The notes below the pieces were generated by a model, which saw only the letters and a program-made list of their open reading frames with translations, searched no databases and had not been told where the DNA came from. A DNA stretch of 64,000 nucleotides from the NCBI GenBank assembly GCA_028873795.1, contig JAPPNP010000051.1, positions 71,641 to 135,640 on the forward strand, read 5' to 3'. Both the position numbers and the translations under genes were made by a program. Of this stretch, positions 1 through 24,908 are shown one piece after another. Position 1 is the stretch's first letter. Every line of letters begins with the position of its first letter. The stretch is from Chloroflexota bacterium (GTDB lineage Bacteria; Chloroflexota; UBA11872).

Positions 1-3
1 TGG

Positions 4-25
4 CCCACGCTGCGTGCAGCGTGGG
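4..25. repeat. GC-rich perfect hairpin CCCACGCTGC-GT-GCAGCGTGGG (copy 1 of 3 related hairpins)
   Basis: Inverted repeat read directly; related copies at 4543-4564 and 6078-6098 with compensatory changes in both arms. Confidence 0.6.
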
Positions 26-98
26 ATTCCTTGTGGATTGATCTCCCCGGCGGGCGCCCCCTAAATCCCCCCGAACGCCCGCGCCCACGCCCACAAGT

Positions 99-122
99 AG
101 GGGCGGTTCGCGAACCGCCCCT
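99..122. terminator. 24-nt perfect palindrome AGGGGCGGTTCGCGAACCGCCCCT just 3' of panE; flanked by direct repeats CTAAAT(T)CCCCCGAACGCCCGCGCC (61-84 and 138-164)
   Basis: Self-complementary sequence read directly; position immediately downstream of minus-strand panE stop; no U-tract so terminator role is inference. Confidence 0.3.
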
Positions 123-139
123 ACACGGAATCCCGCGCC

Positions 140-1069
140 CTAAATTCCCCCGAACGCCCGCGCCTTGGCCTTGAGCGACAAGTAGATGGCCTCGAGCGCT
201 GGCGTGGGCACGCCGGCCTCGCGGCCGCGGCGGACGACCGCGCCGGTGAGGTACTCGAGCTCGACGCGGCGCTGGTGGCCGAAGTCGACCTGCAGCGAGG
301 TGGTGTTGTCGGCCGGGGCGGATTGCAGCAGGGCCACCAGGTCGTCGCTGGTCGATTCGGGCAGGTCCACGCCCAGCGCCCGCCCAACGGACGCCGCTTC
401 GTCGAACATCATGCGGTATGCGTCCTCCATGCCCTCGGTGGACAGGATGTCGCCGAGCGGTAGCTGGCAGGCGGCGCTCATGCCGCCGTGGACCGATAGC
501 AGCACGATCTTGCTCCACAGGATGCGCGTGATGTCGTCGCTGACCTCGGTCTCGATGCCGCAGCCGCGCAGCGCCTCGGCGATGGCCTCTACGCGGTCGG
601 AAATCCCTCCGGCGGGTTCGCCGATCGCCGCACGCACCAGCGCGTCCTGATACTCGATCACGCCCGGCCCGTCGATGTGGGCCGTCAACCAGGTGGCGCC
701 GCCGATCACGTGCTCCGCGCCCAGCACAGACGACAGCATCGGCACGCTGTCGATGCCGTTCTGCAGCGTGAGCACCGACGTCTCGTCGCCGACCGCGGGG
801 ACCAGCAGCTCGGCGGCCGACTGTGTGTCGTAGGCCTTGACCGCGAAGACTACGAGATCGAACGTCGCCCCGGCATCCGCGGGACGCTCGACGACATCAA
901 CCTGAAGATAACGGCGCGACCCGTCTTCGCTGAGCATGCACAGCCCGTGTTCCCGAATGGCTTCCAAGTGCGCCCCGCGGGCGACAAAGGTCACGTCGTG
1001 GCCGGTTTCGAATAGCCCGGCCCCGACAAAGCCGCCAACCCCGCCGGATCCCATCATCATCACGCGCAT
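140..1069 (-). CDS. panE: 2-dehydropantoate 2-reductase (ketopantoate reductase, ApbA/PanE family)
   Basis: N-terminal GSGGVGGFVGAGL Rossmann motif and overall ApbA-like organisation; 309 aa. Confidence 0.75.
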   Translation of the reverse strand: MRVMMMGSGGVGGFVGAGLFETGHDVTFVARGAHLEAIREHGLCMLSEDGSRRYLQVDVVERPADAGATFDLVVFAVKAYDTQSAAELLVPAVGDETSVLTLQNGIDSVPMLSSVLGAEHVIGGATWLTAHIDGPGVIEYQDALVRAAIGEPAGGISDRVEAIAEALRGCGIETEVSDDITRILWSKIVLLSVHGGMSAACQLPLGDILSTEGMEDAYRMMFDEAASVGRALGVDLPESTSDDLVALLQSAPADNTTSLQVDFGHQRRVELEYLTGAVVRRGREAGVPTPALEAIYLSLKAKARAFGGI

Positions 1070-1139
1070 GCTGCTCTCCTTGTCCTATGGGGTCTCTTGA
1101 ATGGCCCGGTCAGATGCCGGATGTGCGGGACGCAGCCGG

Positions 1140-1330
1140 GGCAGATCCCATCTTGTTAGGGGTGGATTCCCGCCTTCGGAGACCCTTGCAAAACCCGGCC
1201 AGGCTCGAGGATGACTGGGCGAACGCCATCCGCCCCCAGGTTCAATGAAGGGTGGATTCCCGCCTTCGCGGGAATGACGAAGGGTTACGCAAAGGTCTCC
1301 CGTCGCGGGAGTGACGGAGGGGTTCGTGGG
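1140..1330. repeat. MITE/REP-like intergenic repeat module (GGTGGATTCCCGCCTTCG..GCGGGAATGACGAAGG hairpins, two copies, plus CTCCCGTCGCGGGAG hairpin)
   Basis: Same module found at 4681-4715; inverted repeats read directly; ORFs called here (1085-1366, 1211-1618) are low-complexity and rejected. Confidence 0.55.
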
Positions 1331-1366
1331 AATAGCGGAGGCGGCTTGCATGATTCTTCGAGCCAA

Positions 1367-3247
1367 CTATCCCGCGCCGTCGCCGAGGGTTACCAGCGCC
1401 TCGGTCACAGGTCCGCGGGTCTGGCCGTCCACGCGAATCTCGACCGTGAGGATGCGGCGAGCGTCCGAGTGCGCCGGCGCCGTGGCATTGAGCGTCAGCT
1501 CCCCGCGCGCGCCGGCCTCGAGGTCCAGGGACTCGAATGCATCGCTCGTGCGCCAGCCGTCGGGAGCCAGCAGCCGCGCGTCGAGCCGCACGGGCCGCTC
1601 CGCGTTGTTGCGGAGTAGGAGACGGTAGCTGCACGCCTCGCCGGCTTCGACGTGGCGCAAATACGGGATCAGCCGCGCCCACCAGAGGTCCACCCCCTCG
1701 TCGGCCGGTTCGTCCAGCAGGTCCCGCACCACGCGCTCCTTGCGGGCGATAAAGTCGCGGTACTCCGCCGCGCGGCGCGCGTCCCACGGAATCAGCTCGC
1801 GGTGCCCCGGACAGACCAGGTCCGGGTGCACCAGGTCCATCACGTCCGCGCAGCGGCGATGCATCCATAGCTGCAGGCTGTTGCGCAGCACCGTGGTCTG
1901 GTAGAGCTGCGGGGTCACCTCACCGGTGATGCCGGGCGCCAGCTCCAAGAAAACGTTGTCGCCAGTGAAGGCCACTTTCTGCCCATCGACGTGCGTGGCA
2001 AGGACCGAGTGGAATTCCGTTTGGCCGGGCGCGTGGTGGACCTCGAACTCGAACTCCTCCCACTGGAACCGCTCGCCGTCGCGCAGCTTGCGTTCGATCG
2101 GAATGGGATACGGCAACGTGCAGGGCGTGCTGCACCAGCCGGCCGGGTCCTCCAGCACCTGCGCCACTTCGTCGAGCGCCCAGACGCGCGCGCCCTCGTG
2201 CCGCACCAGGTAGGGGATGCCCGCCGTGTGGTCGTCGTGGATGTGCGTGACCAACACCATGTCCATCTCGTGCACGCCGTAGGTCTCGCGCAGCTCGTCG
2301 AGGTGATGCACCACGAAGCGCATCGTGTCGCCGTCCTCGCGCTCCTGGGCAACACCCATGTGCGCGAAATGCGAGTGCCCATAGTCGATGAAGCACGCCT
2401 TGCCGCTCTCGGACAGCAGCACGTAGAAGTTGGAGCAGGTGTGCGGACCGCCCCACAGGAGATGCCGTGAAACCTGGATGAACTTCGGATCGGGCAGGAG
2501 ATCAAGTCCATGTCCCCCGTCGCGGCCCAGGAACCGCATCCCGGCGCCCAGCCGCGCCAGGGCCATCAGCCGCTCTTCGAGCCGCGCGCAGTCACCGATT
2601 GGGTCCTCGATCACGTCGCCATGCGAGGGCAGCGCCAGATCGGGCGTTTGCCGCCGCAGCGCCTGCAGGGATTCCAGCGTGAACAGTGCGCCCTGCTGAT
2701 CGGCGTAGCCGTACTCCATGGCGTGGTATTGGTAGAGCACGCCGCCGGCGCATAACAGGTCGCCGGTGAATGCCACGCGGCGGCTGTCGACTTGGCCGAT
2801 GAGCATGCTACTGCCGTGCGTGTGGCCCTTGGCCGGGATGATTTCAAACTCGACGTCGCGCCAGGTGAAGGTCTCGTAGTCCGCGAGGTCGGCGTCGACC
2901 GCCACGTTCTCCGCCAGCGAGAAAAAGGTGTTGCGGTCGTTGTAGTTGTCGTAGACACGCTTGTGTTGCCAGAACAGCTCGGCCTGCTCGAATAGATGCC
3001 GCTCTTGCTCCGGCACGGCGACTCTGGCGCCGTGGTCTTTGAGCCGTCCGGTGCCCCAGCACTGGTCGCGATGGTGATGCGTGTGCAGCACCCACTCGAC
3101 TTGCCGCACGCCGATTTCGTCGAGATGGTCCACGGCGGCGCCCGACCCGGCGTCGATCAGCAGGCCGCGGTCGCCGGCGGTCACGCAGTAGACGTTGCAG
3201 GTGTCGGCCCAGCGAAAGATGCGCGGGGAGACTTGGTCCCAGGCCAT
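1367..3247 (-). CDS. Tandem metallo-beta-lactamase-fold hydrolase (two MBL domains: HTHHHRDQ and THIHDDH motifs) with ~120-aa C-terminal domain
   Basis: Two HxHxDH zinc-binding motifs about 300 aa apart, followed by His/Asp ligands; 626 aa. Confidence 0.7.
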   Translation of the reverse strand: MAWDQVSPRIFRWADTCNVYCVTAGDRGLLIDAGSGAAVDHLDEIGVRQVEWVLHTHHHRDQCWGTGRLKDHGARVAVPEQERHLFEQAELFWQHKRVYDNYNDRNTFFSLAENVAVDADLADYETFTWRDVEFEIIPAKGHTHGSSMLIGQVDSRRVAFTGDLLCAGGVLYQYHAMEYGYADQQGALFTLESLQALRRQTPDLALPSHGDVIEDPIGDCARLEERLMALARLGAGMRFLGRDGGHGLDLLPDPKFIQVSRHLLWGGPHTCSNFYVLLSESGKACFIDYGHSHFAHMGVAQEREDGDTMRFVVHHLDELRETYGVHEMDMVLVTHIHDDHTAGIPYLVRHEGARVWALDEVAQVLEDPAGWCSTPCTLPYPIPIERKLRDGERFQWEEFEFEVHHAPGQTEFHSVLATHVDGQKVAFTGDNVFLELAPGITGEVTPQLYQTTVLRNSLQLWMHRRCADVMDLVHPDLVCPGHRELIPWDARRAAEYRDFIARKERVVRDLLDEPADEGVDLWWARLIPYLRHVEAGEACSYRLLLRNNAERPVRLDARLLAPDGWRTSDAFESLDLEAGARGELTLNATAPAHSDARRILTVEIRVDGQTRGPVTEALVTLGDGAG

Positions 3248-3398
3248 GGACGCCTCGCGGTGCCGTGCCGGCGACAGTGGGGGCAGCGTACGGGACGGCG
3301 GTCGGGACAGGCGAATAGGCGGCTGCGGCGAGCCTGCGAGGTATACGCGTCGGGCGTTGCTGTAGTCTGAGCAGGCTAGCCAACCGGCCTAAATCACC

Positions 3399-4514
3399 AT
3401 GCCTGAAACCGGCGCCATTGCCGTCTTCAACGGAATCCGCGAGCCGTTCGACCTGCGGGATTTCCCCGTACCGGACCCGGAGCCGGGCGCCGCGGTGATT
3501 CGCATGCGGCTGGCCAACGTGTGCGGCTCCGACATGCACTACTGGCGCGGCGACACGGACCTGGTCGCGCGCGGCTTCAACCTCCCGGGCACGCTGGGGC
3601 ACGAGGGCACCGGCGAGATCGCCAAGCTGGGCACCGGATTGACCGTCGACACTGCCGGCCAGCCGCTGCGCGAAGGCGACCGGGTGGTCTTCGGCTTCTT
3701 CCACCCATGCCTGCGCTGCGCGAACTGCCTAAAGGGGCATACCTACGCGTGCCCAACGCGGCAGACCAATCGGATGACGCTGCTGGACGAGTGGCCCTAC
3801 TTCCGCGGCACGTTCGCCGACTACTACTACCTGTTTCCAAAGCACGCCATATTTCGGGTACCCGATCACCTGGACGACCACCTCATCTCGGGCGTGAACT
3901 GCGCCTTGAGCCAGGTGGTCTCCGGGCTGGACCGCGCCGGACAGACCGTCAACGAAACGGTGGCGATCCAGGGGGCCGGCGGCTTGGGCGTCTACGCCGC
4001 GGCCGTGGCCCAGGCGCGCGGCGCGGCGCGCGTGATCGTGATCGACGGTGTGGAGGAGCGGCTGGAGCTGGCGCGCGCGTTCGGCGCGGACGAGACGGTC
4101 GATATGCGCGACTACGAGACACCTGAAGCGCGTGTGGCTCGGGTCCAGGAGCTCACCGACGGCCTCGGCGCCGACGTGACGATGGAGCTGGTGGGACATC
4201 CCGGCGTGTTCGCGGAGGGGGTCGGCATGACCGCGCCGGGCGGGCGCTACGTCGAAATTGGCAATGTCTGCGTCGGGCACACGGCGAGCTTCGATCCGTC
4301 CACCATCGTCTTCAAGAGCATCACGGTGCTGGGCGTGGCCCACTACCGCTGGCGGGACCTGAAGCAGGCGCTGGACTTTGTGTCCCACAACGTGGACAAG
4401 CTGCCGTTCGATCGCGTGCTGTCTCACACGTATCCGCTGCACGAAATCAACGAGGCGTTCGAGCGCCAGGACGAAGGTCACGTGACGCGCAGCGCGCTTG
4501 CGCCCGCGTCCTGA
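3399..4514 (+). CDS. Zn-dependent alcohol dehydrogenase (MDR superfamily)
   Basis: CGSDMHYW...GHEGTGEI catalytic-zinc motif; structural-zinc Cys cluster CLRCANC; GAGGLG NAD-binding motif. Confidence 0.8.
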   Translation: MPETGAIAVFNGIREPFDLRDFPVPDPEPGAAVIRMRLANVCGSDMHYWRGDTDLVARGFNLPGTLGHEGTGEIAKLGTGLTVDTAGQPLREGDRVVFGFFHPCLRCANCLKGHTYACPTRQTNRMTLLDEWPYFRGTFADYYYLFPKHAIFRVPDHLDDHLISGVNCALSQVVSGLDRAGQTVNETVAIQGAGGLGVYAAAVAQARGAARVIVIDGVEERLELARAFGADETVDMRDYETPEARVARVQELTDGLGADVTMELVGHPGVFAEGVGMTAPGGRYVEIGNVCVGHTASFDPSTIVFKSITVLGVAHYRWRDLKQALDFVSHNVDKLPFDRVLSHTYPLHEINEAFERQDEGHVTRSALAPAS

Positions 4515-4542
4515 TGCAGCGCAGCACCGGAAGCTCACCGTT

Positions 4543-4564
4543 CCCAGGCTGCACGCAGCCTGGG
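4543..4564. repeat. GC-rich hairpin CCCAGGCTGC-AC-GCAGCCTGGG (copy 2)
   Basis: Perfect inverted repeat 29 nt downstream of ADH stop; covaries with copy 1. Confidence 0.6.
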
Positions 4565-4565
4565 C

Positions 4566-4737
4566 CACCGGACCCGCGGTCTGGGCCACCGGGCAATACG
4601 CCACCGATCTGTCATTCCGAGCGCAGCGAGGAATCTAAGGCGCGGCCCTACGTCCCTAGCGGCTCCAGGATGGACGACCGGTGGATTCCCGCCTCCGCGG
4701 GAATGACGAAGGACTACCCGAACGGTTTCGCTCGAAC
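4566..4737. repeat. Composite intergenic repeat: GTCATTCCGAGCGCAGCGAGGAATCTAAGG arm plus GGTGGATTCCCGCCTCCGCGGGAATGACGAAGG module
   Basis: Shares left arm with repeats at 10759 and 21323 and right module with 1250-1292. Confidence 0.6.
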
Positions 4738-6063
4738 ATGGCCCATATAACACCGCCCGAACACGACCTGCTCGACCAGGTCTTTCCCGTCGGTACGGTC
4801 CGCGACGACGCCGGCGCGCTCGTCATCGGCGGGGTCGATGTCGAGGCGTTGGCGGAGGAGTGCGGCACTCCGCTCTACATCTATGACGAGGCCACGCTGC
4901 GCGCGGCCTGCCGTGGCTATACCCGCGCGCTGGCGGACACCTATCCCAACGCGCTGGTGCTCTACGCCGGCAAGGCCTACGTGGATCCCACGCTCTTGCA
5001 GGTGGCGGCCTCCGAGGGCCTGGGGATGGACGCCGTCTCCTCGGGCGAGGTGCACGTGGCGCAGGCCGCCGGGATGCCGCTGGAGCGCGTGGTGCTTCAC
5101 GGCAACAACAAGCTGCCGCGCGAGATCGACCTGGCGCTCGAGCTTGGCGTCGGGCGCATCGTCGTCGATGCGCTGGAAGAGATCGAGATCATCGACGATT
5201 TGGCGCGGCGACGCGGCCAAACGGCGCAGGTGCTCATGCGGCTCACGCCGGGCGTGGAAGCGCACACGCACGACTACATCCGCACCGGCGCCGTGGACAG
5301 CAAGTTCGGTCTCGGGCTCGACTCCGGCGCGGCCGAGGAAGCTGTCGCGCGGGCAATGCGGGCGCCGAATCTCGACGTGATGGGGCTGCACGCCCACATC
5401 GGGTCCCAGATCTTCGACACCGAGCCCTATGCCGACACGATCAACATCACGCTCGACTTTGCCGAGCGCATGCGGGCCGCCCACGGACTCGACCTGCGGG
5501 ATCTGAGCCCGGGCGGCGGCGGCGGCGTGCGCTACACGCTCGACGACGATCCACCCGATCCGGCCGACATCGTCGAGGCCATCACGTCGACGGTGCTGGC
5601 TCGCGGCCTCGCCCATCCGCCGCGGCTGCTCATCGAGCCCGGTCGATCCATCGTGGCGCGTAGCGGGGTGGCGCTCTACGCCGTGGGCACCGTCAAGCAC
5701 ATCCCCGGCGTGCGCACCTATGTCTCCGTCGACGGGGGCATGGCCGACAATCCGCGTCCCGCGCTCTACCAGTCTAAATACGCCGCGCTGCTGGCGAATC
5801 GACCCGCTGACGGTCCACCCGAGGCGGTAACGCTCGCAGGCCGCTACTGCGAGTCCGGCGACGTCCTGCTGCGCGACACGGTGCTGCCGCCGCTGCGCCG
5901 CGGCGACCTCATCACCATTCCGACGTCCGGCGCCTATCACATGAGCATGGCCAGCACCTACAACATGGTTGGCCGGCCCGCCGTGGTGATGGTCGCGGAC
6001 GGCCAAGCCCGCCTGACCCGCCGCCGCGAAACCGACGAGGATCTGCTGGCGGTGTTTCCCTAA
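4738..6063 (+). CDS. lysA: Diaminopimelate decarboxylase
   Basis: Fold-III PLP decarboxylase pattern (GTPLYIYDE..., AGKAY lysine, GGG loop, EPGR, CESGD); start moved to ATG 4738 because upstream part of ORF lies inside the repeat. Confidence 0.85.
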   Translation: MAHITPPEHDLLDQVFPVGTVRDDAGALVIGGVDVEALAEECGTPLYIYDEATLRAACRGYTRALADTYPNALVLYAGKAYVDPTLLQVAASEGLGMDAVSSGEVHVAQAAGMPLERVVLHGNNKLPREIDLALELGVGRIVVDALEEIEIIDDLARRRGQTAQVLMRLTPGVEAHTHDYIRTGAVDSKFGLGLDSGAAEEAVARAMRAPNLDVMGLHAHIGSQIFDTEPYADTINITLDFAERMRAAHGLDLRDLSPGGGGGVRYTLDDDPPDPADIVEAITSTVLARGLAHPPRLLIEPGRSIVARSGVALYAVGTVKHIPGVRTYVSVDGGMADNPRPALYQSKYAALLANRPADGPPEAVTLAGRYCESGDVLLRDTVLPPLRRGDLITIPTSGAYHMSMASTYNMVGRPAVVMVADGQARLTRRRETDEDLLAVFP

Positions 6064-6077
6064 GCCCGCCCGGTGGC

Positions 6078-6098
6078 CCAGGCTGCGTGCAGCCTGGG
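6078..6098. repeat. GC-rich hairpin CCCAGGCTGC-GT-GCAGCCTGGG (copy 3), 15 nt after lysA stop
   Basis: Inverted repeat read directly. Confidence 0.6.
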
Positions 6099-6206
6099 AT
6101 TTGTCGTCCGCACGCTTCGGTAGCCCGACGTGTCGTCCCGCGGCGCCCCCGGGGCTTGTTCATGACCGCAATCCACCCAGAGATGTCGATCCAATCGACC
6201 ATCCAC

Positions 6207-6641
6207 CTACCGCAGCGGGTCGACGACCTCGAGAAACGGAAAACGATGGAAGTGGGTGTCGCGGGTGCAAACGCGGCTGACGCCGTGCTCACGCATCAAC
6301 ACCGCCGTGTGCAGGTCGTGCATCAGGTTGCCGCGGACATCCGGCAGTTCCGCCAGCGTCTGCGCCAGGACCGCCTGGTGCCGCTCGGTCGGCCGCAAAA
6401 GCGCGAAGCCTGGGGAGTCGAGGAGCACGCCGAGAAAGCGCCACGCGTCACTGGGATGCCACGGCGCGCGGAGCACTTGCGGATGCGTGCTGACCCGCAG
6501 GAACTCGTAGCAGACGTTCCACGTGAGAAAGGTCGGCGTTGGATCGACTCGCCATTGGTTCACGTGCTCCCGGCAGGCCGCGTGCGCCTCGGCATCCTGG
6601 TCGGCCGCATAGACAAGCACATTGGTGTCAACGGCGAGCAC
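6207..6641 (-). CDS. vapC: PIN-domain toxin (VapC-type ribonuclease)
   Basis: N-terminal VDTNVLVYA and conserved acidic residues typical of PIN; adjacent downstream of small antitoxin gene. Confidence 0.75.
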   Translation of the reverse strand: MLAVDTNVLVYAADQDAEAHAACREHVNQWRVDPTPTFLTWNVCYEFLRVSTHPQVLRAPWHPSDAWRFLGVLLDSPGFALLRPTERHQAVLAQTLAELPDVRGNLMHDLHTAVLMREHGVSRVCTRDTHFHRFPFLEVVDPLR

Positions 6642-6881
6642 TCACTCCTCACCCATCGCCGCATAGAGCTCATCTCGGTTGGCGACGTCGACCAGCGCGC
6701 CGCCGCTGTTCCAGCGCGGCAGCTCCGGCAGCTCATCGCGTTCGGTGACATACGGCGGCGCCGGCTCGAGCACGCGCATGATGCCGGCCTCGACCAGGGC
6801 CGTCATGGTGGTGCCGCGCCGCGCGGCCTCTTCGCGCAGGCGGCGCATCACCGTGTCGTCGAGATTCAGCGTTGTCTTCAT
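6642..6881 (-). CDS. vapB: VapB-type antitoxin (ribbon-helix-helix)
   Basis: 79-aa protein MKTTLNLDDTVMRRLREEAARRGTTMTALVE...; immediately upstream of and abutting the PIN gene; internal ATG of longer spurious ORF. Confidence 0.65.
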   Translation of the reverse strand: MKTTLNLDDTVMRRLREEAARRGTTMTALVEAGIMRVLEPAPPYVTERDELPELPRWNSGGALVDVANRDELYAAMGEE

Positions 6882-7054
6882 TTGGTCGACCTTGCGTCGC
6901 TGGTATATGGCAAACCATACAGCATATATGGCTATATGCCAAGCCCTGGATGCATTCGCCCGTCCGCGGCTCTTGGCAGCCTGCCGCCTGGAGTTGACCA
7001 ACCTCGCGCAGCCGCCCTCTGACCCATACCCGGGAGAGGCGGCGTGTACGCCCG

Positions 7055-7921
7055 CTACCCAGCCGCGTAGCCTTCGAGAATCTGCGCGGCGCTGGTGCGC
7101 CGCAGCTTGGCGAGCGCCTGGGCTTGCAGCTGCCGGATGCGCTCGGCGGTGAGGCCGAGTCGGTTGCCGATGTCGACCAGGCGCAGCGGCTCGCGCCCGC
7201 CGAGTCCGAAGCGCAGGCGCAGGATGGTGCGCTCGCGTACGTCCAGCGTGGCCAGCGCGCGATTGAGGTCGGCGCAAAGAAACTTCGCGCGCAACTCATC
7301 GAATGGCTGCGGGGCCGCCTCGGCGTCGGACGGGGTCGCCGGCGCCTCATCCTCGGCGGTCGCGCTATCCAGCGAGATCGCCCGCCCGGCGAACCGGCGC
7401 AGTCGCGCCAACTCGGCAGCGGGCAGACCGAGGCGACACGCCACTTCGCCGTCCTCGGGATCGCGCTGCAACTCGGCCCGCAGCTCGTCCCAGATCCGCC
7501 GTGAAGATGCCAGCTTGCGGTGCACGTAGTCGGGAAGCCGCAGCGGTAGGTCGGCCTCGGCCGCCGCCCGCGCGATGGGTTGCTGCACCCACTGCATGGC
7601 AAAGCTGCTGAACCTGAACCCGTGCCGCCAATCGAAGCGCTCCACGGCTCGCATCAGGCCCGTGTTGCCTTCCTGGATGAGGTCGAGCAGCGGCGCGCGC
7701 CCGTCGGCGAAGCGGCGCGCAACGGCCACCACCAGGCGCAAGTTGGCGGTGATCATCTGTTGGCGGGCCCCCGGCTCGTTGCGCTCGATGCGCTGCGCCA
7801 ACTCGACTTCCTCGCGTGCCGTGAGACGGGGAAACCGGCGGATTTCACTCAGGTAGGCACGCAGGCTCGACGCCTCGTCCAGCTGGGCGGTCGGCCCTAC
7901 TCCTCCACGTTGTGGGGACAT
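7055..7921 (-). CDS. RNA polymerase sigma-70 family factor (regions 2, 3 and 4 present)
   Basis: Region 2 motifs (DLIQEGNTGLMRAVERFD), region 4 HTH (LRLVDIGNRLGLTAERIRQLQAQALAKLR); start set to ATG 7921. Confidence 0.75.
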   Translation of the reverse strand: MSPQRGGVGPTAQLDEASSLRAYLSEIRRFPRLTAREEVELAQRIERNEPGARQQMITANLRLVVAVARRFADGRAPLLDLIQEGNTGLMRAVERFDWRHGFRFSSFAMQWVQQPIARAAAEADLPLRLPDYVHRKLASSRRIWDELRAELQRDPEDGEVACRLGLPAAELARLRRFAGRAISLDSATAEDEAPATPSDAEAAPQPFDELRAKFLCADLNRALATLDVRERTILRLRFGLGGREPLRLVDIGNRLGLTAERIRQLQAQALAKLRRTSAAQILEGYAAG

Positions 7922-8028
7922 TGGGGGCTTGTCGGCGCTGCCTCTCAGGGCCCGGCGGATCCTCGACGCGGCAAGTATACGCGGGGCCGCTCGATGCCTC
8001 AGCGGCCCTAGCCGCACTTCGGTGGGCG

Positions 8029-9033
8029 CTACGCCATGCTTTCGAGCTGATCGATGGTGACTTCGTGCCTCAGCGGCTGGCCGTTCGCGTGCCGCTCCAG
8101 CTCATCGAGCATCGCGTCCATCAGCCGGGACCGCCGCTCGGGGGTTAGCCCCGCGACATGGGGCGTCAGGAGCACCCGCCGCATCCCCATCAGCGGGTGA
8201 TCGGGCGGCAGCGGCTCCTCGTCGAAGACATCCAGGGCGCAGTCGAATCGCTCCTTGGCCAGCTCGGCCACCAGGGCGTCGGTGTCGATCAGGGCGGATC
8301 GCGCGTTGTTGACCAGCACGGCATCGTCCTTGATCAGCGCCAGCATCCCGGCGTCGATCATGTGGTGGGTTTCGGGCAGCACGGGAGCGTGAATGCTGAT
8401 CACGTCGCTGGTTCGCATCAAGTTCGGCAGCTCGAGCTTGGACACGCCCAGCCGCTGCGCGTCGCTCGCGGTCAAGTAGGGATCGGCCACGACGACTTCG
8501 ACGTCGAACGGGCGCAGCAGCGGGATGAGGCGCCGTCCCACCTTGCTCGCGCCGACGATGCCATAGCGCTTGCCATACAGCTCTCGGTCCACCGCCGGGC
8601 CGATGTCGCGCCAGCGTCCGGCGCGCATGGCGGCGTCGAAGTCGCCCGTGCACCGCAGCAGGGCTAGCACCACGGTCAGCGTGTGCTCGGCGACGCCGAG
8701 GGCGATGAAGTCGGCGGCATGGGTCACGCGCACGCCGCGCTCGAACACAGCCGGCGGCGCCACGCTACGGATCGTGCCCGCTGCGTAGCAGATAACTTCC
8801 AGGTCCGGCGCGGCATCCAGCAGCCGCTCGTCGTAGGTGCACGAGCCCCATGAGGCCAGCACAGCCGTCATGCCGCCGATGCGCTCTCGCACCGCCGCGG
8901 CGTCCCAGGCCCGATCGGCGTCGTTGAACGTCACCGATTCGGCCAGGCGCTCCAGCCGCGCGAGCGCTTCAGGCGTTGCGATGCGCCGGAGCAACGGCTG
9001 CTCAACAGTCACCAGCACGCGCGGTGCGGACAT
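8029..9033 (-). CDS. D-isomer-specific 2-hydroxyacid dehydrogenase (PGDH/GyaR-like), NAD-binding
   Basis: GxGxxG-like GIVGASKVG motif, catalytic His/Glu/Arg pattern; start trimmed to MSAPRVLV. Confidence 0.7.
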   Translation of the reverse strand: MSAPRVLVTVEQPLLRRIATPEALARLERLAESVTFNDADRAWDAAAVRERIGGMTAVLASWGSCTYDERLLDAAPDLEVICYAAGTIRSVAPPAVFERGVRVTHAADFIALGVAEHTLTVVLALLRCTGDFDAAMRAGRWRDIGPAVDRELYGKRYGIVGASKVGRRLIPLLRPFDVEVVVADPYLTASDAQRLGVSKLELPNLMRTSDVISIHAPVLPETHHMIDAGMLALIKDDAVLVNNARSALIDTDALVAELAKERFDCALDVFDEEPLPPDHPLMGMRRVLLTPHVAGLTPERRSRLMDAMLDELERHANGQPLRHEVTIDQLESMA

Positions 9034-9116
9034 CGAGCATCTCCTCGGTGACGATCGGCCTGCGCTGGCATGATAGGCGCGCACCACGCGGTCCCGGCGG
9101 AAGCGCGGCACGCCCG

Positions 9117-10732: not shown

Positions 10733-10734
10733 GC

Positions 10735-10880
10735 CAATACGCCGCCGGTCGCCACCCGGTCATTCCGAGCGCCAGCGAGGAATCTAAGGAGCGCGGAGCA
10801 TGCACCAACGTCCTTAGATTCCTCACTTCGTTTCGGAATGACATGGGGGGTTGCGGAGTGACATGTGGGCTGCCGCTGAG
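10735..10880. repeat. Long imperfect hairpin repeat (GTCATTCCGAGCGCCAGCGAGGAATCTAAGGA / TCCTTAGATTCCTCACTTCGTTTCGGAATGAC) plus short direct repeats GGAATGACATGGGG / GGAGTGACATGTGGG
   Basis: About 30-bp stem inverted repeat read directly; near-identical copy at 21323-21400. Confidence 0.65.
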
Positions 10881-10895
10881 CGAAAACTCCTGTGC

Positions 10896-11987: not shown

Positions 11988-12112
11988 TGCATTCGCTCCA
12001 CCGCCTCAACGCCGAGGATCATGGTACGCGCGGCGGCAGGCCGCGTTGCAGTCGCGGGGCGGTTCTGGTACTCACCGTGGCAACCGGTACTTCGCCGCGG
12101 AAGGGCAAGGCC

Positions 12113-14668
12113 ATGACCCAAGTGATGCAGGGCGCACAGACTCCCTCCCGACGGGCCGTTGGGCAGTGGATTTGGATCGAGGGCGAAGCCAAGCCCTACA
12201 ACTTCTACCTCTACGCCCGTGGAACGGTCGACGTGGACGGCACGCCGGCGGCCGCGAAGCTGCACGTGACGGCGTCGGACCGCTACATGCTGTATCTGAA
12301 CGGCGCGTACGTTGGCCGGGGTCCGGCCCGCAGCGATCCCCGCTTCAAGACCTACGACACCTACGACATCGCCGCCGCGCTGAAACCGGGCCGCAACGTC
12401 ATCGCGGTGCGGGCCTATCACTTCGGCCAGCCCGTGGAGGGCGAGGGCTGGAACAGCATGAGCGGCAACAGCTTCACCGTGGGCGAGCGCGCCGGGCTGT
12501 GGGCCCAAATCGAGATCACGGACGCCGACGGCGCGACGCACGTCAGCGGCACCGGCCCCGATTGGCGGCTGTTGCCCTCGCCGGCCTGGAATCGGAGAAC
12601 CCCACTGGTCAACTGCGGAATGATCGGGTCGAACGAGATCTACAACGCCGCGGCGGACATTCCCGACTGGACGGGCGTCGACTTCGACGACAGCGAGTGG
12701 ACGCGCCCGTGGCTGGTGCCGCTTGCCCAGAAGCCATGGCACCTGCTGGAGGCTCGCGACATTCCCCTGATGCGCGAAACCGATGTGCCGCCCGCCCGCG
12801 TGTCGCTGGTGGGCGAGCTGATCGACATGGCAAACGCGCGGCAAACGGACATCTACCAACTGATCCTGGAGGGACTGCACTTTCCACTGGAGCACGCGAC
12901 GGCCGAGAACGTCGATGCGCTGCTGAACGACGGTCCGGACTCGGCGCAGTTCCAGGGAGTATTCGCGCACACCAAGGGCATTCGCGCGCCCTACGTGGTC
13001 CTGGACTTCGGGCGCCAGGTGTTCGGGTTCCCGCGCGTGCGGCTGGAGGCCGAGGCCGGCGCCATCCTGGACCTGACGTATGGACAGCAGCTCATCAACG
13101 ACCGCATTCCCGGCGCGCTGTCCTATGCCGACCGGTACATCACCCGCGACGGCGACCAGAGCTGGGAAGCGGCGGAATACAAGCAGTTCCGCTATCTCTT
13201 CATCGCCGTCCGCAGCACCTACAGCCCGGTGCGCATCCGCTCGATCTCGCTCAACGAATACGCCTATCCCGCTCCGCTTCGCGGCAGCTTCGAGTGCGCC
13301 GATCCCGTGCTCACGACGCTGTGGAAGTCGTGCGTCGACACCACCGACCTGCATCTCGAGGACACGATCGTTTGCGACGCCTACCGCGAGCGGATTCCGT
13401 GGAACACCGGTGACGGCAGCCACGGCATGCACGGCGCGTTGATGGCCTACGGCGACATTGCGCTCCACGACCGGTTCCTGCGCCAATTCATCACCACCGA
13501 TCGCGGCGACGGCAGGCTGCAAATGGTGTTTCCGCGCGACAACCCGACGAACCACTGCCACCCGCAGTTTCTGCTGCAGTGGTCCACCCGCATCCGCGAG
13601 CACTACGAGTACATCGGCCGGCGCCCGCTCCTGGAGCAGACCTACCCAAGCGTGCGGCGGCTGAACGATTGGTTCGAGCCCTACCGCGACGACCTGGGCC
13701 TCCTACGCGACATTCCCGAGAATCAATGGATGGACTGGACGCCGGTTGACCTGCGGGGCGCGAACTTCAGCACCAATGCGCTTTATGTCAACTCATTGGA
13801 GGACGGCGCTTGGCTGGCCGCCCAGATGGGACGCGAGGACGATCGGGCCCGCTGGCAGGGCATTGCGGACGAGGTGCGCGCCGCGCTGCGCCAGCACTTC
13901 TGGAATCCCGACCTCGGCGTGTTCGAGGACTCCCACTACCGTGACGAACTCACCGGCGTGACCGGCGAGTTGGCGCAGGGATTCGCGCTGCTCTACGGCA
14001 TCGCCACGGATGACCAGGCGGCGCGGATGTGCGCGAGCCTGGCCGGGCGCGGAACCGAGCTGTTTCAGGCTTCGCCGCTGTGGTACCCCTACGTGCTCGA
14101 AGGCATGTTTGCGCGGGGCTTCGGGGCGGAGGCACTGCGGATCATCCACAACCGCTACGCCTGGATGATGTCGGCCCACCAAAACCCGACGCTTTGGGAG
14201 GGCTGGGACCCGTTCACCGCCGGCTCGGCAATCAAGACCGACGCGGACTTCGAGCTGCGGCACACCGCGCACAAAGTCCGACCGGCCGGCGTGCGCAGCC
14301 TGGTGCACTCCGGCGGCGTCTACGTGGGCTGGGTGCTCTCGACTCGCGTCCTCGGCGTGCGCGCCGCGGCGCCGGGCATGTCGCACCTGCGGGTGCATCC
14401 CCGCACGGGCAACCTGGCCTGGGCTCGCGGGACGTTTCCCGTTCCCGGCGGCGACGTTGAGGTCGCGTGGCGCCGCCGCGGTGGCGCGACGCGGGTGACG
14501 CTGGACCTTCCGGAGGGCCATACCGCGGACGTCGTGCTGGACCGCGCGAGCGACGCGCAGACCGTGTTCGCCCACAACGGCCAGCGGCTGGAAACGCCGG
14601 CCACCGGCGCGTCGGTCGAGGTCGCGGTTGGACCCGGCCGGCACACGGTCGAGCTGGGTCGGGGGTAG
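12113..14668 (+). CDS. Glycoside hydrolase family 78 (alpha-L-rhamnosidase-like)
   Basis: About 850 aa; N-terminal WIWIEGE...YxYARG motif, six-hairpin glycosidase-like central region; family assignment by pattern recognition only. Confidence 0.55.
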   Translation: MTQVMQGAQTPSRRAVGQWIWIEGEAKPYNFYLYARGTVDVDGTPAAAKLHVTASDRYMLYLNGAYVGRGPARSDPRFKTYDTYDIAAALKPGRNVIAVRAYHFGQPVEGEGWNSMSGNSFTVGERAGLWAQIEITDADGATHVSGTGPDWRLLPSPAWNRRTPLVNCGMIGSNEIYNAAADIPDWTGVDFDDSEWTRPWLVPLAQKPWHLLEARDIPLMRETDVPPARVSLVGELIDMANARQTDIYQLILEGLHFPLEHATAENVDALLNDGPDSAQFQGVFAHTKGIRAPYVVLDFGRQVFGFPRVRLEAEAGAILDLTYGQQLINDRIPGALSYADRYITRDGDQSWEAAEYKQFRYLFIAVRSTYSPVRIRSISLNEYAYPAPLRGSFECADPVLTTLWKSCVDTTDLHLEDTIVCDAYRERIPWNTGDGSHGMHGALMAYGDIALHDRFLRQFITTDRGDGRLQMVFPRDNPTNHCHPQFLLQWSTRIREHYEYIGRRPLLEQTYPSVRRLNDWFEPYRDDLGLLRDIPENQWMDWTPVDLRGANFSTNALYVNSLEDGAWLAAQMGREDDRARWQGIADEVRAALRQHFWNPDLGVFEDSHYRDELTGVTGELAQGFALLYGIATDDQAARMCASLAGRGTELFQASPLWYPYVLEGMFARGFGAEALRIIHNRYAWMMSAHQNPTLWEGWDPFTAGSAIKTDADFELRHTAHKVRPAGVRSLVHSGGVYVGWVLSTRVLGVRAAAPGMSHLRVHPRTGNLAWARGTFPVPGGDVEVAWRRRGGATRVTLDLPEGHTADVVLDRASDAQTVFAHNGQRLETPATGASVEVAVGPGRHTVELGRG

Positions 14669-14871
14669 CTGGGATGCGAGCGAGCGTTCAATGGACGCAC
14701 GCGCCGGCGCACGGCGAACGTCAATAGGCCACAATGGCGCCGTGATGCGGACTTTGCCGAACACTCACGGCCAGGAGCGACCGCTGACTCCACGCAGGTC
14801 GCGCTGCGGCCGCCCCGGGCAGAAGACCCCTGATCAACCTGCGAAACAGAGCCTTGAGAGTGGGCCCGGTT

Positions 14872-14894: not shown

Positions 14895-14899
14895 CTAGG

Positions 14900-15535: not shown

Positions 15536-15548
15536 GGCGCCGTCGGCG

Positions 15549-16159: not shown

Positions 16160-16429
16160 GTGCTACTCAATATGAATTCCGTATACAGATGATCATACTT
16201 GGATTTTCATCAATGGTCCATCCGAGTTCAACCGAATTCACTGGCCACGACGGGGGACCGTAGCGGCGCCATCGCGCCTTCGGATCTCTCCCGCCACCTT
16301 CACCGACCCAAGCGCCGCTTAGCCGAAGCCCGCGACCTCCAGACCAAAAGGCCTAGCGAGACCTCCCAGCGGTGCAGCGCTTCGAGCCCAAACTCCGCCG
16401 TTCGTCGTCGATAGAATCGTGTACTTGGA

Positions 16430-17482: not shown

Positions 17483-17489
17483 GCGCCGC

Positions 17490-18401: not shown

Positions 18402-18510
18402 CCGACCGCCCCTCGTCACTGTCTGTCGACCGATATCGCAGGATAGTCGGAACGGCGTCGCCGCCGGCGGCTGAGGCGCCCGCTCGCGGGTACCATCGCC
18501 AGCCAACCGG

Positions 18511-20178
18511 TTGCTCTGGGAGGGCCGCACGGTGTCCGGTCGCTCATCCGCCACGGGCGCATCTCACCTGGTCGCGGCGCTGATCGAAGCGGGAGTCGAG
18601 CGCCTCTTTTCGCTGTCGGGCAACCAGATTCTCTCGATCTACGACGCGTGCCTCGATGCGGGACTCGAGATCATCCACGTGCGCCACGAGGCCGCCGCGG
18701 TGCACATGGCGGATGCGTGGGGCCGGTTGACCGGGCGCCCCGGCGTCGCGCTGCTCACCGCGGGTCCCGGGCACGCCAACGGGCTGACGGGACTGATCGT
18801 GGCGCGCGAAGCCGAGTCGCCGCTGGTGGTGCTCAGCGGCCAAAGCGCTCGCGCCGACGACGGCCGCGGCTCCTTCCAGGAGATGCCCCAGGCGCAACTG
18901 GCCCAACCGCTCTCAAAGGCTGCATGGACGGCGGAGCACTCGGGATCGCTCGGCGACGATGTGCGCCGCGCGCTTGACCTGGCGGTGCAGGGTCGACCCG
19001 GTCCGGTGGCCGTCAGCCTCCCCAGCGACGTGCTCGAAGCAGAGGCCCCACGCAGCGACGGTGCATTCGCAGTTCCAGATGTGTCGGCGCTGACCGAGGC
19101 TGATCGGCGCCGCGTCGGAGAGCTATTCGCCGCCGCCGATCGCCCAATCATCCTGGCCGGTCCGGCCATGATGCGGCCACCGGCGAGCGTTGACCTTGAG
19201 CAGCTGGAAGCAGCGACGGGCATTCCGGTCGTATCCAGCGAAAGCCCGCGTGGCGTGAACGACCCCAGCTTGGGAGCATTCGCCGAGGTTCTTGCCCAAG
19301 CCGATTTCCTGTTGCTCCTCGGCAAGCGCCTGGACCACTCGCTGCAGTTTGGAGCACCGCCGTTCTTCGCCGCCGACGCATGCTTCGCCCAGGTAGACGC
19401 CGATGTCGCCGAGCTCGACCGCACCCGGCGCAACGTGCGCCCACCCCAGCGACTGGCGCTTGCCGTTGAGGCGCATCCGGGGCAGGCGGCGCGCCAACTC
19501 GCGGCCGTCGCTGAAAGCGCCGCGGACGATGGCTGGCGAGAAGCCGTGAGAGCCGCCGTCGACCACCGCCCCGCGGCATGGGACGCCTGGCAGTCACCGC
19601 CCGAGGGTCCGCTGCATCCAATCGAGCTCTGCCAGTCAATCCGTCCATGGGTCGATGACGGCATTGTCGTGATTGACGGCGGCGAGTTCGGGCAGTGGGC
19701 CCAGGCGCTCCTGAGCGGTCGCCGGCGAGTAATCAATGGACCGGCCGGGTCCATCGGCACCGCGATCCCGTTTGCGCTCGCGGCCCGTCTGTTCGACCGC
19801 GAAGCGCCGATCGTCGCAATCGAGGGCGACGGTACGGCCGGCTACCACCTCTTGGAATTCGACACGGCGGTGCGCCACGACCTGCCGTTCGTCGCCGTGG
19901 TGGGCAACGACGCCGGGTGGAACGCCGAGCGCCGGCTGCAAGCGCGAACCTACGGCGAAGACCGAATCTTCGCCTGCGACCTGCTCCCGACGCGCTACGA
20001 CCTCGCGGTCGCGGCCCTTGGCGGTCACGGCGAGCACGTGACGAAACGGTCAGGCCTGGACGCCGCGCTCGAGCGAGCCTTTGCCTCGGGGCTGCCCAGC
20101 CTAGTCAACGTCGCGATCGAGCCCGCCGAGGCGCCGATCGTGCGGCGCGAGGGGACTCCGGTGCGCACAGGGCACTAG
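18511..20178 (+). CDS. Thiamine pyrophosphate-dependent enzyme (acetolactate synthase/benzoylformate decarboxylase family)
   Basis: N-terminal TPP-Pyr domain (GASHLVAALIEAGVERLFSLSGNQ), C-terminal GDG...NN TPP motif (IEGDGTAGY...NDAGWN); start may be GTG 18532. Confidence 0.75.
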   Translation: MLWEGRTVSGRSSATGASHLVAALIEAGVERLFSLSGNQILSIYDACLDAGLEIIHVRHEAAAVHMADAWGRLTGRPGVALLTAGPGHANGLTGLIVAREAESPLVVLSGQSARADDGRGSFQEMPQAQLAQPLSKAAWTAEHSGSLGDDVRRALDLAVQGRPGPVAVSLPSDVLEAEAPRSDGAFAVPDVSALTEADRRRVGELFAAADRPIILAGPAMMRPPASVDLEQLEAATGIPVVSSESPRGVNDPSLGAFAEVLAQADFLLLLGKRLDHSLQFGAPPFFAADACFAQVDADVAELDRTRRNVRPPQRLALAVEAHPGQAARQLAAVAESAADDGWREAVRAAVDHRPAAWDAWQSPPEGPLHPIELCQSIRPWVDDGIVVIDGGEFGQWAQALLSGRRRVINGPAGSIGTAIPFALAARLFDREAPIVAIEGDGTAGYHLLEFDTAVRHDLPFVAVVGNDAGWNAERRLQARTYGEDRIFACDLLPTRYDLAVAALGGHGEHVTKRSGLDAALERAFASGLPSLVNVAIEPAEAPIVRREGTPVRTGH

Positions 20179-20189
20179 CCCGCCGTCGG

Positions 20190-21227
20190 CTAGCGCTTCG
20201 CCTGAACGTAGGTGCCCGGCCACGGCACGTCGACGCCGAGATCCGCGGCGGCGCGGAGCGCCCAGTAGGGATTGCGCAGCAGCTCGCGCCCCAGGGCGAC
20301 CAGATCGGCGCGACCGCTGCGCACGACCTCATCCGCCACGTGGGCGTCCTCAATGAGACCAACCGCAATGACCGGCCCGCCGGCCACACGGCGAATAGTC
20401 GTCGCGACCGGCAACAGATATCCGGGGTAGACCCTGGGAGCGCTGGGCGTGACGCCGCCGGCGCTCACGTGGATCAGGTCGGCGCCAGCCTCGCGCAGGC
20501 AGCGGGCGCCGATGGCCATGTCGTCGGCGGTGTTGCCGCCATCCACGAAATCGGTGCCCGAGATTCGCACCGAGATCGGCATCCAATCCGGAATCGCGGC
20601 GCGAACGGCAGCGACGACCTCGCACGGCATGCGCGACCGCTTCTCGATGCTGCCCCCGTATTCGTCGTCGCGCCGGTTGGTCAGCGGGGAGAAGAACTCG
20701 CTGAGCAGATAGCCGTGGGCTGAGTGAATCTCAATGGCCTGGAAACCGGCCTCCACTGCTCGCCGCGCAGCGGACGCAAAGGCATCTACGACGTCCGTGA
20801 TCTCGGCAGGTGCGAGGCTCACAGGCACGCGCCAGCCGTCGTCGAAGCGCAGCCGGCTGGGGGCCACGAGCCGGTGGCCGGAATGGCCGCGCTCGTCGTA
20901 GTAGGCCTTGCGCCCCGCGTGGCCGAGCTGGATGCCGATCACCGCACCCTGCGAGGCGCAAAAGGCCGCGATGCGCCGCAGGGGCTCGATCTGGGCGTCG
21001 TCCCAGAGGCCAAGGTTTACCGGATAGATCACGCCCCGAGGCTCGACTGCCGTGACTTCGGTGAAGATCAGCCCCACGCCGCCCACGGCCCGCGAGCCGT
21101 AGTGCACCACGTGCCAGTCGCCGGCCGCACCGCCGTCCACGGCCGCCAGCTGGTCCATGGGGGCCATCACCACGCGATTGCGCAGCGTCACGCCGCGGAC
21201 GCGCAGGGGATCGAATAAACCGGGCAT
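20190..21227 (-). CDS. NADH:flavin oxidoreductase (Old Yellow Enzyme family)
   Basis: RNRVVMAPM and HGAHGYLL OYE motifs; start trimmed to MPGLFDP. Confidence 0.8.
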   Translation of the reverse strand: MPGLFDPLRVRGVTLRNRVVMAPMDQLAAVDGGAAGDWHVVHYGSRAVGGVGLIFTEVTAVEPRGVIYPVNLGLWDDAQIEPLRRIAAFCASQGAVIGIQLGHAGRKAYYDERGHSGHRLVAPSRLRFDDGWRVPVSLAPAEITDVVDAFASAARRAVEAGFQAIEIHSAHGYLLSEFFSPLTNRRDDEYGGSIEKRSRMPCEVVAAVRAAIPDWMPISVRISGTDFVDGGNTADDMAIGARCLREAGADLIHVSAGGVTPSAPRVYPGYLLPVATTIRRVAGGPVIAVGLIEDAHVADEVVRSGRADLVALGRELLRNPYWALRAAADLGVDVPWPGTYVQAKR

Positions 21228-21300
21228 TGGTCGCTCGCGGTAAGGTTGAGCGTTGAAGTCTAGTGGGCGTGGCGCGGGCACGTCCCGGCACCCCACCGCC

Positions 21301-21450
21301 GTCATTTGAAGCCGCCCCTATCTGTCATTCCGAGCCGCAGGCGAGGAATCCAAGGGGCAGCGAGAAGGCACCACGTCCTTAGATTCCTCACTTCGTTCGG
21401 AATGACAGATTCGGGTTTCGGAGTGACAGATTGAAATTTCGGATCAATAG
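21301..21450. repeat. Long hairpin repeat (CTGTCATTCCGAGCCGCAGGCGAGGAATCCAAGG / TCCTTAGATTCCTCACTTCGTTCGGAATGACAG) followed by three TTCGGA(A/G)TGACAGATTC-like direct repeats
   Basis: Near-identical to 10759-10860 copy including the loop GCACCA(A)CGTCC. Confidence 0.65.
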
Positions 21451-24848: not shown

Positions 24849-24908
24849 AGAGAGAAGGGCAACCACAAGGGTTGCCCCTACATGGCATGGACTCGGTCGC
24901 CAGGAACG

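Follow-up and report, generated by a model that had tools for sequence, protein, structure and literature searches.

Most intergenic hairpin repeats of a Chloroflexota scaffold probably form one family of oriented, Ssn-related DNA hairpins

We analyzed short hairpin repeats in a 64,000-nucleotide (nt) stretch of Chloroflexota DNA (here called the window), which is part of the 137-kb ENA metagenome scaffold ROBB21-1_SAMN13943215 scaffold_287. An earlier note, made from sequence alone, had sorted these repeats into three classes (I to III) and described them as elements resembling miniature inverted-repeat transposable elements (MITEs). We conclude that Classes II and III are probably a single family of oriented, Ssn-related DNA hairpins, akin to the NTS/dRS3 repeats of Neisseria. 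The repeats extend a known system by a new sequence variant and are not a new kind of element: the units that we refer to as GA-type, together with the conserved doublets that they form, are a variant overlooked by the published search pattern. Directly observed here were the identity of the motif, structural covariation within single units, the association of GA-type units with GIY-YIG genes, and the conservation of the repeat arms.

The Ssn nucleases, described in 2025, are the first site-specific nucleases reported to be exclusive to the cutting of single-stranded DNA (ssDNA) (PMC11893778). We found this work by a full-text search with the Class II core. In it, the dRS3 repeat of Neisseria was recognized as part of NTS, a 28-nt oriented hairpin with the consensus CGTCATTCCCGCGMAVGCGGGAATCYRG (Chenal 2025, Nat Commun, PMC11893778). 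The 94-amino-acid (aa) single-domain GIY-YIG nuclease SsnA binds and cuts NTS only as ssDNA and only on one strand, and it binds no RNA; cleavage depends most on the 3 nt before the palindrome, and binding depends most on the C after it. The binding and cutting of ssDNA were demonstrated for Neisseria and Wolbachia enzymes only. The motif typically stands on both sides of ssnA genes (NTS-ssnA-NTS), Ssn homologues are found mostly in Pseudomonadati, and a degenerate SRM pattern, HGTCWYN(0-2)YYVSBRHN(0-5)WNVSBRGN(0-2)RNCYNB, detects related motifs in several phyla (PMC11893778). The search with the NTS consensus in that paper allowed 1 mismatch (PMC11893778).

All repeat copies listed by the earlier note were present, either exactly where it had placed them or a few bases off. 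They were confined to intergenic DNA, were composite and multi-copy, and far exceeded chance when 25-mer and hairpin counts were compared with shuffles: Class II and Class III 25-mers each occurred twice at up to 3 mismatches (0.00 expected), and the Class I hairpin occurred three times (0.01 expected). The string GTCATTCC was found eight times in the window, seven times as part of a unit and once, at 33599, as a chance match within a gene. Folding of single strands gave the described hairpins, with z values between -4.4 and -6.4 for the two complete copies of Class III and between -2.4 and -3.8 for Class I. Some details had to be revised. The copy given as 1159-1186 is there only as a truncated half-unit (1161-1178), the Class III copy at 21.3 kb ends at 21406 instead of 21400, and the tails described as GGA(A/G)TGACA exist but are 5' half-units, TGTCAYTCCG, on the opposite (bottom) strand. 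Two units were added, a variant on the minus strand at 1295-1315 and a unit just upstream of the window (L001, 6557-6583; related loci are given by such numbers below).

The separation of Classes II and III did not hold, since both share one frame. Every Class II/III unit consists of GTCATTCC, an inner hairpin, and GGAATC, and is thus laid out as GTC-A, a 5-bp stem (ATTCC/GGAAT) enclosing the inner hairpin, and a C. In all 7 full units of this form in the window, GTC stood 5' of the palindrome and C directly 3' of it, and the variant at 1295-1315 also kept both flanks (GTCA...GAC). The units of both classes therefore share GTC and ...GGAATC, exactly the positions critical for cleavage and binding. 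What differs is the inner part. In Class II the stem simply continues, as CGC-GAAG-GCG (the Neisseria-like form) or as GGC-GGAA-GCC. In the GA-type it consists of G-A, a 2-bp stem, a G-N-A triloop, the returning 2-bp stem, and G-A, so that tandem G.A/A.G mismatches flank the stem, as in GAGCGCAGCGA and GAACGAAGTGA. With its sheared G.A pairs, this core appears to hold the d(GCGAAGC)/C-GNA-G mini-hairpin, known for its unusual stability in DNA; such stability would fit a structure formed at the level of DNA. Some units stood alone, some were truncated to halves, and others formed inverted doublets, which are Class III: a GA-type unit on the top strand, a spacer of 21 to 22 nt, and another such unit on the bottom strand. 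Even the GA-type unit at 4611-4640, previously taken for a left arm only, has a partner in doublet geometry, the Class II unit at 4681-4708.

The NTS consensus CGTCATTCCCGCGMAVGCGGGAATCYRG was matched by Class II units only, at 1252-1279 with 1 mismatch and at 4681-4708 with 2. We therefore regard the Class II units as apparent new members of the NTS/SRM kind. Judged by the published operational definition, Class III would be a variant and not an SRM member, and among the units of the window only 1252-1279 fitted the SRM pattern. The likeness to the NTS/SRM-SsnA system lies in the oriented hairpin, whose ATTCC(C)...(G)GGAAT palindrome is preceded by GTC and followed by C, in the multi-copy intergenic occurrence, and in the bracketing, in related genomes, of a ~100-aa single-domain GIY-YIG gene by units. 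The differences lie in the host, Chloroflexota being a phylum that the main text of the paper does not mention (PMC11893778), in the GA-bulged inner mini-hairpin that places most units here beyond the SRM pattern, and in conserved inverted doublets and, in relatives, arrays with a period of 200 to 400 nt, neither of which appears in that main text (PMC11893778). Unlike NTS-ssnA loci, the window has no ssn gene. The repeats also recall the Neisseria NIMEs (RS elements flanked by dRS3), with variable internal segments bounded by ATTCC..GGAAT-type hairpins and with arrays of modules (L037 and L060), but they occur in another phylum, enclose unrelated internal segments, and have no link to surface-antigen genes. 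Literature searches found no paper with the sequence of the GA-type unit, only primers with 8-mers of the repeats, and no later work on Ssn motifs.

The association with nuclease genes emerged from related genomes. When 185,579 species genomes were scanned for the Class III arm, at least 106 stretches matched; nearly all of the matches listed lie in metagenome-assembled genomes (MAGs) of Dehalococcoidia or other Chloroflexota, and at least 8 such loci are scattered over the 3.19-Mb contig of the closest relative. The 106 motif-selected loci, each of up to 8 kb, included 2 from Dehalococcoidia MAGs (L087 and L004) with an open reading frame (ORF) of 98 to 102 aa whose sole Pfam domain is GIY-YIG (E = 3e-13 and 5e-16). 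Both genes have GA-type units on both sides. The L087 protein reads MNHRQYYVYILTNGKRTLYTG..., and its gene starts 10 nt after the end of the upstream GA-type unit; the downstream flank is identical to 4611-4640 of the window over the 30-mer, and the upstream flank differs in its last bases only.

We then considered 80 metagenome loci picked solely by similarity to the L087 protein and independently of the DNA motif. A unit of the form GTCA-stem-GA...GA-stem-TC lay within 250 nt of the gene in 53 of these 80 loci, and on both sides of it in 28. The structure-blind anchor GTC-N5-GA-N7-GA-N5-C reached a density of 1.13/kb within 300 nt of the gene, compared with 0.073/kb elsewhere (~15-fold), and 45 of the 53 near-gene anchor matches had a perfect 5-bp outer stem. 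Upstream units lay on the strand of the gene 45 times and on the opposite strand 21 times, and downstream units were on the opposite strand 39 times and on the same strand 16 times, so that the gene is usually bracketed by inverted repeats. Perfect-stem GA-type units were present in 35 of the 80 loci; the SRM pattern was matched in 2, both times by canonical NTS cores. Canonical NTS cores flank two relatives that share 58 to 63% identity with the L087 protein, a finding that appears to connect this GIY-YIG clade with the described Ssn family. These loci thus set the GA-type unit apart as a hairpin design of its own, linked to this Ssn-like gene clade.

Covariation indicated which structure is under selection. 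In an alignment of 14 Class III-type doublets from the window and from other MAGs, the hairpins within each arm had 100% of cells paired and 2 pairs with compensatory double changes (for example, C-G to T-A within the left arm in four genomes), a covariation score reached by none of 500 shuffles. Pairing from arm to arm, as in the ~90-nt hairpin that the earlier note had taken as the Class III structure, left 93% of cells paired and gave no compensated pair; one inter-arm position was unpaired in all 14 doublets, and changes compensated within an arm disrupted inter-arm pairs. Since compensation was found within each arm and not between arms, the ~90-nt hairpin is merely a consequence of two adjacent inverted units and not the selected structure, and we ruled it out as a functional structure on covariation. 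Among the units at the ssn-like gene loci, all 7 pairs had compensatory changes, 91% of cells were paired, and again none of 500 shuffles reached the score. The outer stems vary by lineage and stay complementary, as ATTCC/GGAAT, ATCCT/AGGAT, ATTCT/AGAAT, ACCCT/AGGGT, ATTTC/GAAAT, and others. The proposal that hairpin structure is under selection is thereby upheld, by covariation in the Class II/III units as well as in Class I.

The nearest public relatives of the window are two Chloroflexota MAGs, CBDEVI010000002.1 (88% identity across 7752-14757) and DAOUKN010000150.1 (86% identity across 1364-5849). The doublet at 10759-10842 occupies the same site in the sister species (L090), with 60 of 61 arm positions and 17 of 22 spacer positions identical, compared with 88% over the surrounding 7 kb. 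Likewise, 44 nt at 4603-4646 were identical throughout (44/44) in the orthologous locus L082. The arms of the sister species are thus 98 to 100% identical against a background of 86 to 88%, and ~120 nt of units carried 2 substitutions where ~15 would be expected at the background rate, so that the arms are either constrained in sequence or being homogenized. At the L082 counterpart of 4681-4708, a 24-nt insertion, itself a small hairpin (CCCGGATCGAGTCCGGGG...), lies exactly in the loop, which hints that loops are hot spots of insertion and deletion. The gap 1088-1366, which holds the Class II copies, is filled in L082 by unrelated repeats. The repeat content thus turns over, but the doublet at 10.8 kb is old. 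Recent mobilization, proposed in the earlier note because the loops of the two Class III copies had seemed nearly identical, is contradicted both by this doublet standing at the same site in an 88%-identical species and by the loops of the window being only ~68% alike (15 of 22 positions). The spacers of doublets from different MAGs share the skeleton GGC..GAG..GC.C..CG, which suggests that doublets descend from each other as whole units.

The repeats that replace the Class II units in L082 belong to a separate family, ..TTCGACAGGCTCAYCACGAACGG.. with the inverted partner GCCCTGAGCCTGTCGAAGGGC, also seen in an intergenic gap at L001 6497-6540. Related Dehalococcoidia MAGs carry tandem arrays of 4 to 7 composite elements on the same strand, with a period of 200 to 430 nt (L037 3935-5180 on OZ244716.1; L021, L044, L057, L060, L075, and L100; and L103 on OZ253489.1). 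Their elements are bounded by GA-type arms and have a conserved internal segment of 53 to 200 nt and repeated half-units at the end. The arrays contained no ORFs, and ten related loci with arrays gave no Rfam match at the gathering score. We considered ribozymes and integron attC sites and rejected both, as there was no Rfam match, no GTTRRRY core, and no ORF between the copies. A third type of element, present in several Chloroflexota MAGs (L056, L054, L063, L049, L076, L018, L028, and L077), consists of a left unit GTCATTCC..GGAATCTAAGG followed by a conserved ~40-nt ggcaggcgattgggcacaccgcctgtcaactcctcgcggcc and has no recognizable right arm. Viral contigs gave no match to the Class III pattern.

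Several results weigh against assigning Classes II and III to the Ssn-related kind. No ssnA-like gene was found with the L087 and L004 proteins in the 64-kb window and the 6.6 kb upstream of it. Proteins of the L087/L004 type had no NCBIfam or PDB match and were set beside SsnA by their Pfam GIY-YIG domain and flanking motifs. About one-third of the protein-selected loci, many of them on short contigs, had no unit. The SRM pattern was not satisfied by any of the five GA-type arms, 4681-4708, the L001 unit, or 1295-1315, nor by any of the 48 distinct GA-type units beside ssn-like genes. Because the GA-type units fall outside this pattern, we infer their recognition by an Ssn enzyme from gene linkage only. 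Finally, gene conversion between copies, instead of selection for protein binding, could account for the conserved arms.

On the Ssn-related reading, and by analogy with Neisseria SsnA, the strand reading GTCATTCC... would fold whenever replication, repair, or DNA uptake leaves the DNA single-stranded. The folded unit would then be bound sequence-specifically by a ~100-aa single-domain GIY-YIG nuclease, its gene lying elsewhere in the genome, which would nick a few bases 5' of the unit. The geometry of the Class III doublet is that of the gene-carrying cassette, unit(+)-gene-unit(-), minus the gene; doublets would accordingly be gene-less derivatives of a unit(+)-ssn gene-unit(-) cassette, probably spread and kept as one piece, much like REPINs or MITEs. 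It is likewise by analogy that we infer the presence of the enzyme in this genome, its binding and cleavage of GA-type units, and mobilization by the nuclease. We know of no demonstration of mobilization by Ssn. A broader proposal is put forward tentatively, and we consider it rather doubtful: the GA-type unit would be the site of a distinct, Chloroflexota-centered Ssn clade, the doublets and the arrays with a period of 200 to 400 nt would be non-autonomous replicators spread by the GIY-YIG enzyme, and the duplicated 5' half-units would be footprints of cleavage and repair. If true, this would amount to a REPIN-like system run by a GIY-YIG nuclease instead of a tyrosine transposase.

Partial copies of a unit's own 5' end are often found 10 to 20 nt upstream on the same strand, both for Ssn-type units and for Class I (10854-10863, 21419-21428, and 4579-4592 in the window), and right arms in many related loci are followed by such a copy, as at 10854-10863. 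Those in L090 and L037 resemble tandem duplications of the end of the element and its flank, and they may be a footprint of cleavage and repair.

REP/RAYT elements, classical MITEs, and structured RNA each fit the observations worse than the Ssn-related reading does. REPs and REPINs, hairpin repeats and doublets recognized as ssDNA and spread by RAYT (a domesticated tyrosine, or Y1, transposase of the IS200/IS605 type), share the anatomy of our repeats: as in the REP/REPIN-RAYT system and the BIME mosaics of E. coli, short intergenic palindromes act as ssDNA hairpins, the inverted doublet is the evolving unit, and mosaic clusters bring several repeat types into one intergenic gap. GTAG at the 5' foot of the hairpin marks REPs, and a separate GTAG-headed hairpin of classic REP form does occur at 97-124. 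The Class I to III units have no 5' GTAG, however, and the gene bracketed by units encodes a GIY-YIG nuclease and not a Y1/HUH transposase. The unit moreover matches NTS, the characterized Ssn substrate, and we consider a REP origin very unlikely. Classical MITEs, i.e., deletion derivatives of insertion sequences (IS) with a DDE transposase that move in trans by cut-and-paste, would explain why Class III, like MITEs such as the Correia elements, is ~85 nt long, intergenic, and multi-copy, with terminal inverted repeats of ~30 nt. Yet there was no target-site duplication (the flanks read cacccg/atgggg and ctatct/agattc), no cognate DDE IS, and no transposase ORF among the annotated ORFs of the window or beside the related copies inspected, where the linked gene encodes a 100-aa nuclease; no IS with these ends was seen in ~1.2 Mb of related loci, where the targeted search covered the GIY-YIG gene only. 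Each arm is an autonomous hairpin also found alone, and the 10.8-kb copy has been stably inherited at its site in the sister species. All this makes classical MITEs most improbable; what survives of the label "MITE-like" is the gene-cassette geometry without the gene.

Selection at the level of the transcript, with the repeats acting as terminators, mRNA-stabilizing hairpins, attenuators, or small RNAs, has in its favor that the hairpins are stable, that Class I copies lie 7 to 28 nt past stop codons, and that two of them were scored as terminator-like, though weakly. In Class I, G.T pairs are restricted to one strand, and covariation alone cannot separate RNA from ssDNA. The elements nonetheless gave no match in Rfam 15, neither across the window at the gathering score nor in 1-22000 at E <= 1. 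Units lie in convergent, divergent, and co-directional gaps in both orientations, and terminator-like sites are not enriched (5 found and 7.9 expected). Conserved oriented flanks and the tandem G.A motif suggest a sequence-specific protein partner, and SsnA, the characterized partner of this motif family, binds ssDNA and not RNA (PMC11893778). A role in RNA is therefore unlikely, and the suggestion of a conserved RNA in the earlier note is not borne out.

Apart from Classes II and III, Class I makes up an oriented hairpin family of its own in the same lineage. It carries the motif string CCGGTGGCCCANGCTGCGYGCAGCNTGGGA, and the full unit reads CCGGTGGCCCA-s-GCTGCGyGCAGC-s-TGGGA. Two perfect inverted 30-nt copies bracket lysA, and further copies recur in several Chloroflexota MAGs. 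Across 15 copies from several genomes, one stem pair was C-G in 8, G-C in 5, and T-A in 2, and a second was A-T in 9, G.T in 4, and G-C in 1, with a score reached by none of 500 shuffles. The compensatory change claimed for Class I is thus real across these copies, but it is limited to one or two positions. Class I was absent from all 80 ssn-gene loci. Chances are about even that it is either a recognition hairpin of another ssDNA-acting enzyme or a lineage-specific terminator, in both cases unrelated to Ssn. The conserved oriented flanks (CCGGTGG...GGGA), the covariation at one or two pairs, the partial 5' duplicate as in Ssn-type units, and the occurrence in several Chloroflexota MAGs together with the absence from ssn loci would all suit this explanation. 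Against it stand the lack of a linked gene among the loci found, the small number of copies (~15), and the invariance of most stem positions, which makes them uninformative.

Table 1. Repeat units of Classes I to III and associated half-units in the window
Feature	Position	Strand	Remarks
Class I hairpin	1..26	+	(CCGGT)GGCCCACGCTGCGTGCAGCGTGGGA; 5' flank lies upstream of the window
Truncated NTS-type unit	1161..1178	-	3' half only (GGTGGATTCCCGCCTTCG on + strand); 18-nt match to 1252-1269, without the GGGAATGAC end
NTS-type unit (Class II)	1252..1279	-	CGTCATTCCCGCGAAGGCGGGAATCCAC; 1 mismatch to NTS; fits SRM pattern; 8-bp hairpin; between ApbA and metallo-beta-lactamase genes
Variant unit	1295..1315	-	GTCACTCCCGCGACGGGAGAC; 6-bp hairpin after GTCA; outside SRM pattern
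Class I hairpin	4542..4571	-	CCGGTGGCCCAGGCTGCGTGCAGCCTGGGA; perfect 30-nt inverted copy of 6070-6099
Partial 5' copy of Class I	4579..4592	-	CCGGTGGCCCAGAC; absent from orthologue L082
GA-type unit ("left arm only")	4611..4640	+	GTCATTCCGAGCGCAGCGAGGAATCTAAGG
NTS-type unit	4681..4708	-	CGTCATTCCCGCGGAGGCGGGAATCCAC; 2 mismatches to NTS; hairpin by fold
Mixed inverted doublet	4611-4640 (GA-type) + 4681-4708 (NTS-type)		40-nt spacer
Class I hairpin	6070..6099	+	7 nt past lysA stop codon
Left GA-type unit, doublet 1 (Class III)	10759..10789	+	
Spacer of doublet 1	10790..10811	.	22 nt; skeleton GGC..GAG..GC.C..CG common to doublets of other Chloroflexota MAGs
Right GA-type unit, doublet 1	10812..10842	-	
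5' half-unit	10854..10863	-	TGTCACTCCG (earlier given as a GGAGTGACA tail)
Left GA-type unit, doublet 2	21324..21355	+	
Spacer of doublet 2	21356..21376	.	21 nt
Right GA-type unit, doublet 2	21377..21406	-	
5' half-unit	21419..21428	-	TGTCACTCCG

The window has a G+C content of 66%, and its first 23 kb hold ordinary housekeeping and oxidoreductase genes: ApbA, metallo-beta-lactamase, a Zn-dependent alcohol dehydrogenase (Zn-ADH), lysA, a PIN toxin pair, a sigma-70 factor, dehydrogenases, a rhamnosidase, an OYE reductase, and an ABC transporter. The repeats affect how these genes are called. As the earlier note had supposed, the start of lysA is displaced, the gene being called from ATG 4738 and not from GTG 4681. 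In the two naive ORFs flanking the 21.3-kb copy, the Pfam domains begin only at residues 30 and 59, so that both true starts are probably farther from the element. Such repeats cause spurious ORF extensions and false start codons and can break assemblies, and masking them is advisable when Chloroflexota MAGs are annotated.

A PIN-domain gene at 6207-6641 on the minus strand and its 79-aa upstream partner, situated between the lysA and sigma-70 genes, are a probable toxin-antitoxin pair; the naive 311-aa ORF on the opposite strand (6087-7022) has no Pfam match and is probably spurious. The GTAG-headed hairpin at 97-124, GTAGGGGCGGTTCGCGAACCGCCCCTAC, is a perfect 12-bp hairpin of classic REP form (DNA fold z = -6.2) and is flanked by two direct copies of CCCTAAATYCCCCCGAACGCCCGCGCC (~58-84 and 139-165), the second of which overlaps the 3' end of ApbA. 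Another hairpin, GGGCAACC-ACAA-GGGTTGCCCCTAC at 24850-24881, directly follows a stop codon at 24846; its minus strand starts with GTAG, and it may be REP-like or else act as a terminator. Two sets of coding tandem repeats in 30700-32010 and 36400-37700 are unconnected with the hairpins. One has a period of 363 to 405 nt (~125 to 135 codons) with 60 to 72% identity; the other, on the minus strand, has a period of 99 nt (33 codons), as is typical for repeats of the ankyrin type.

The Class III arm also had a few exact matches in MAGs labeled as other phyla or groups (L010, L012, L046, L051, L053, L069, L074, L083, L104, and L107, with labels including Rhizobiaceae, Reyranellaceae, Clostridia, Binataceae, Gemmatimonadales, and Thermodesulfobacteriota). 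One of them, L104, labeled as Alphaproteobacteria, carries a doublet together with a Class I copy, both of the kind typical for the Chloroflexota set. Mis-binning and real spread across phyla are both possible sources of these matches.

A second, GA-bulged hairpin design is thus linked to Ssn-like genes and is widespread in Chloroflexota MAGs and environmental metagenomes. Since the SRM pattern misses these hairpins, surveys that use the published pattern may undercount the Ssn system. The GA-type motif offers candidate enzyme-substrate pairs of new specificity for ssDNA tools, and the conserved gene-less doublets and arrays bear on the question of whether hairpin-gene-hairpin cassettes are mobile elements.

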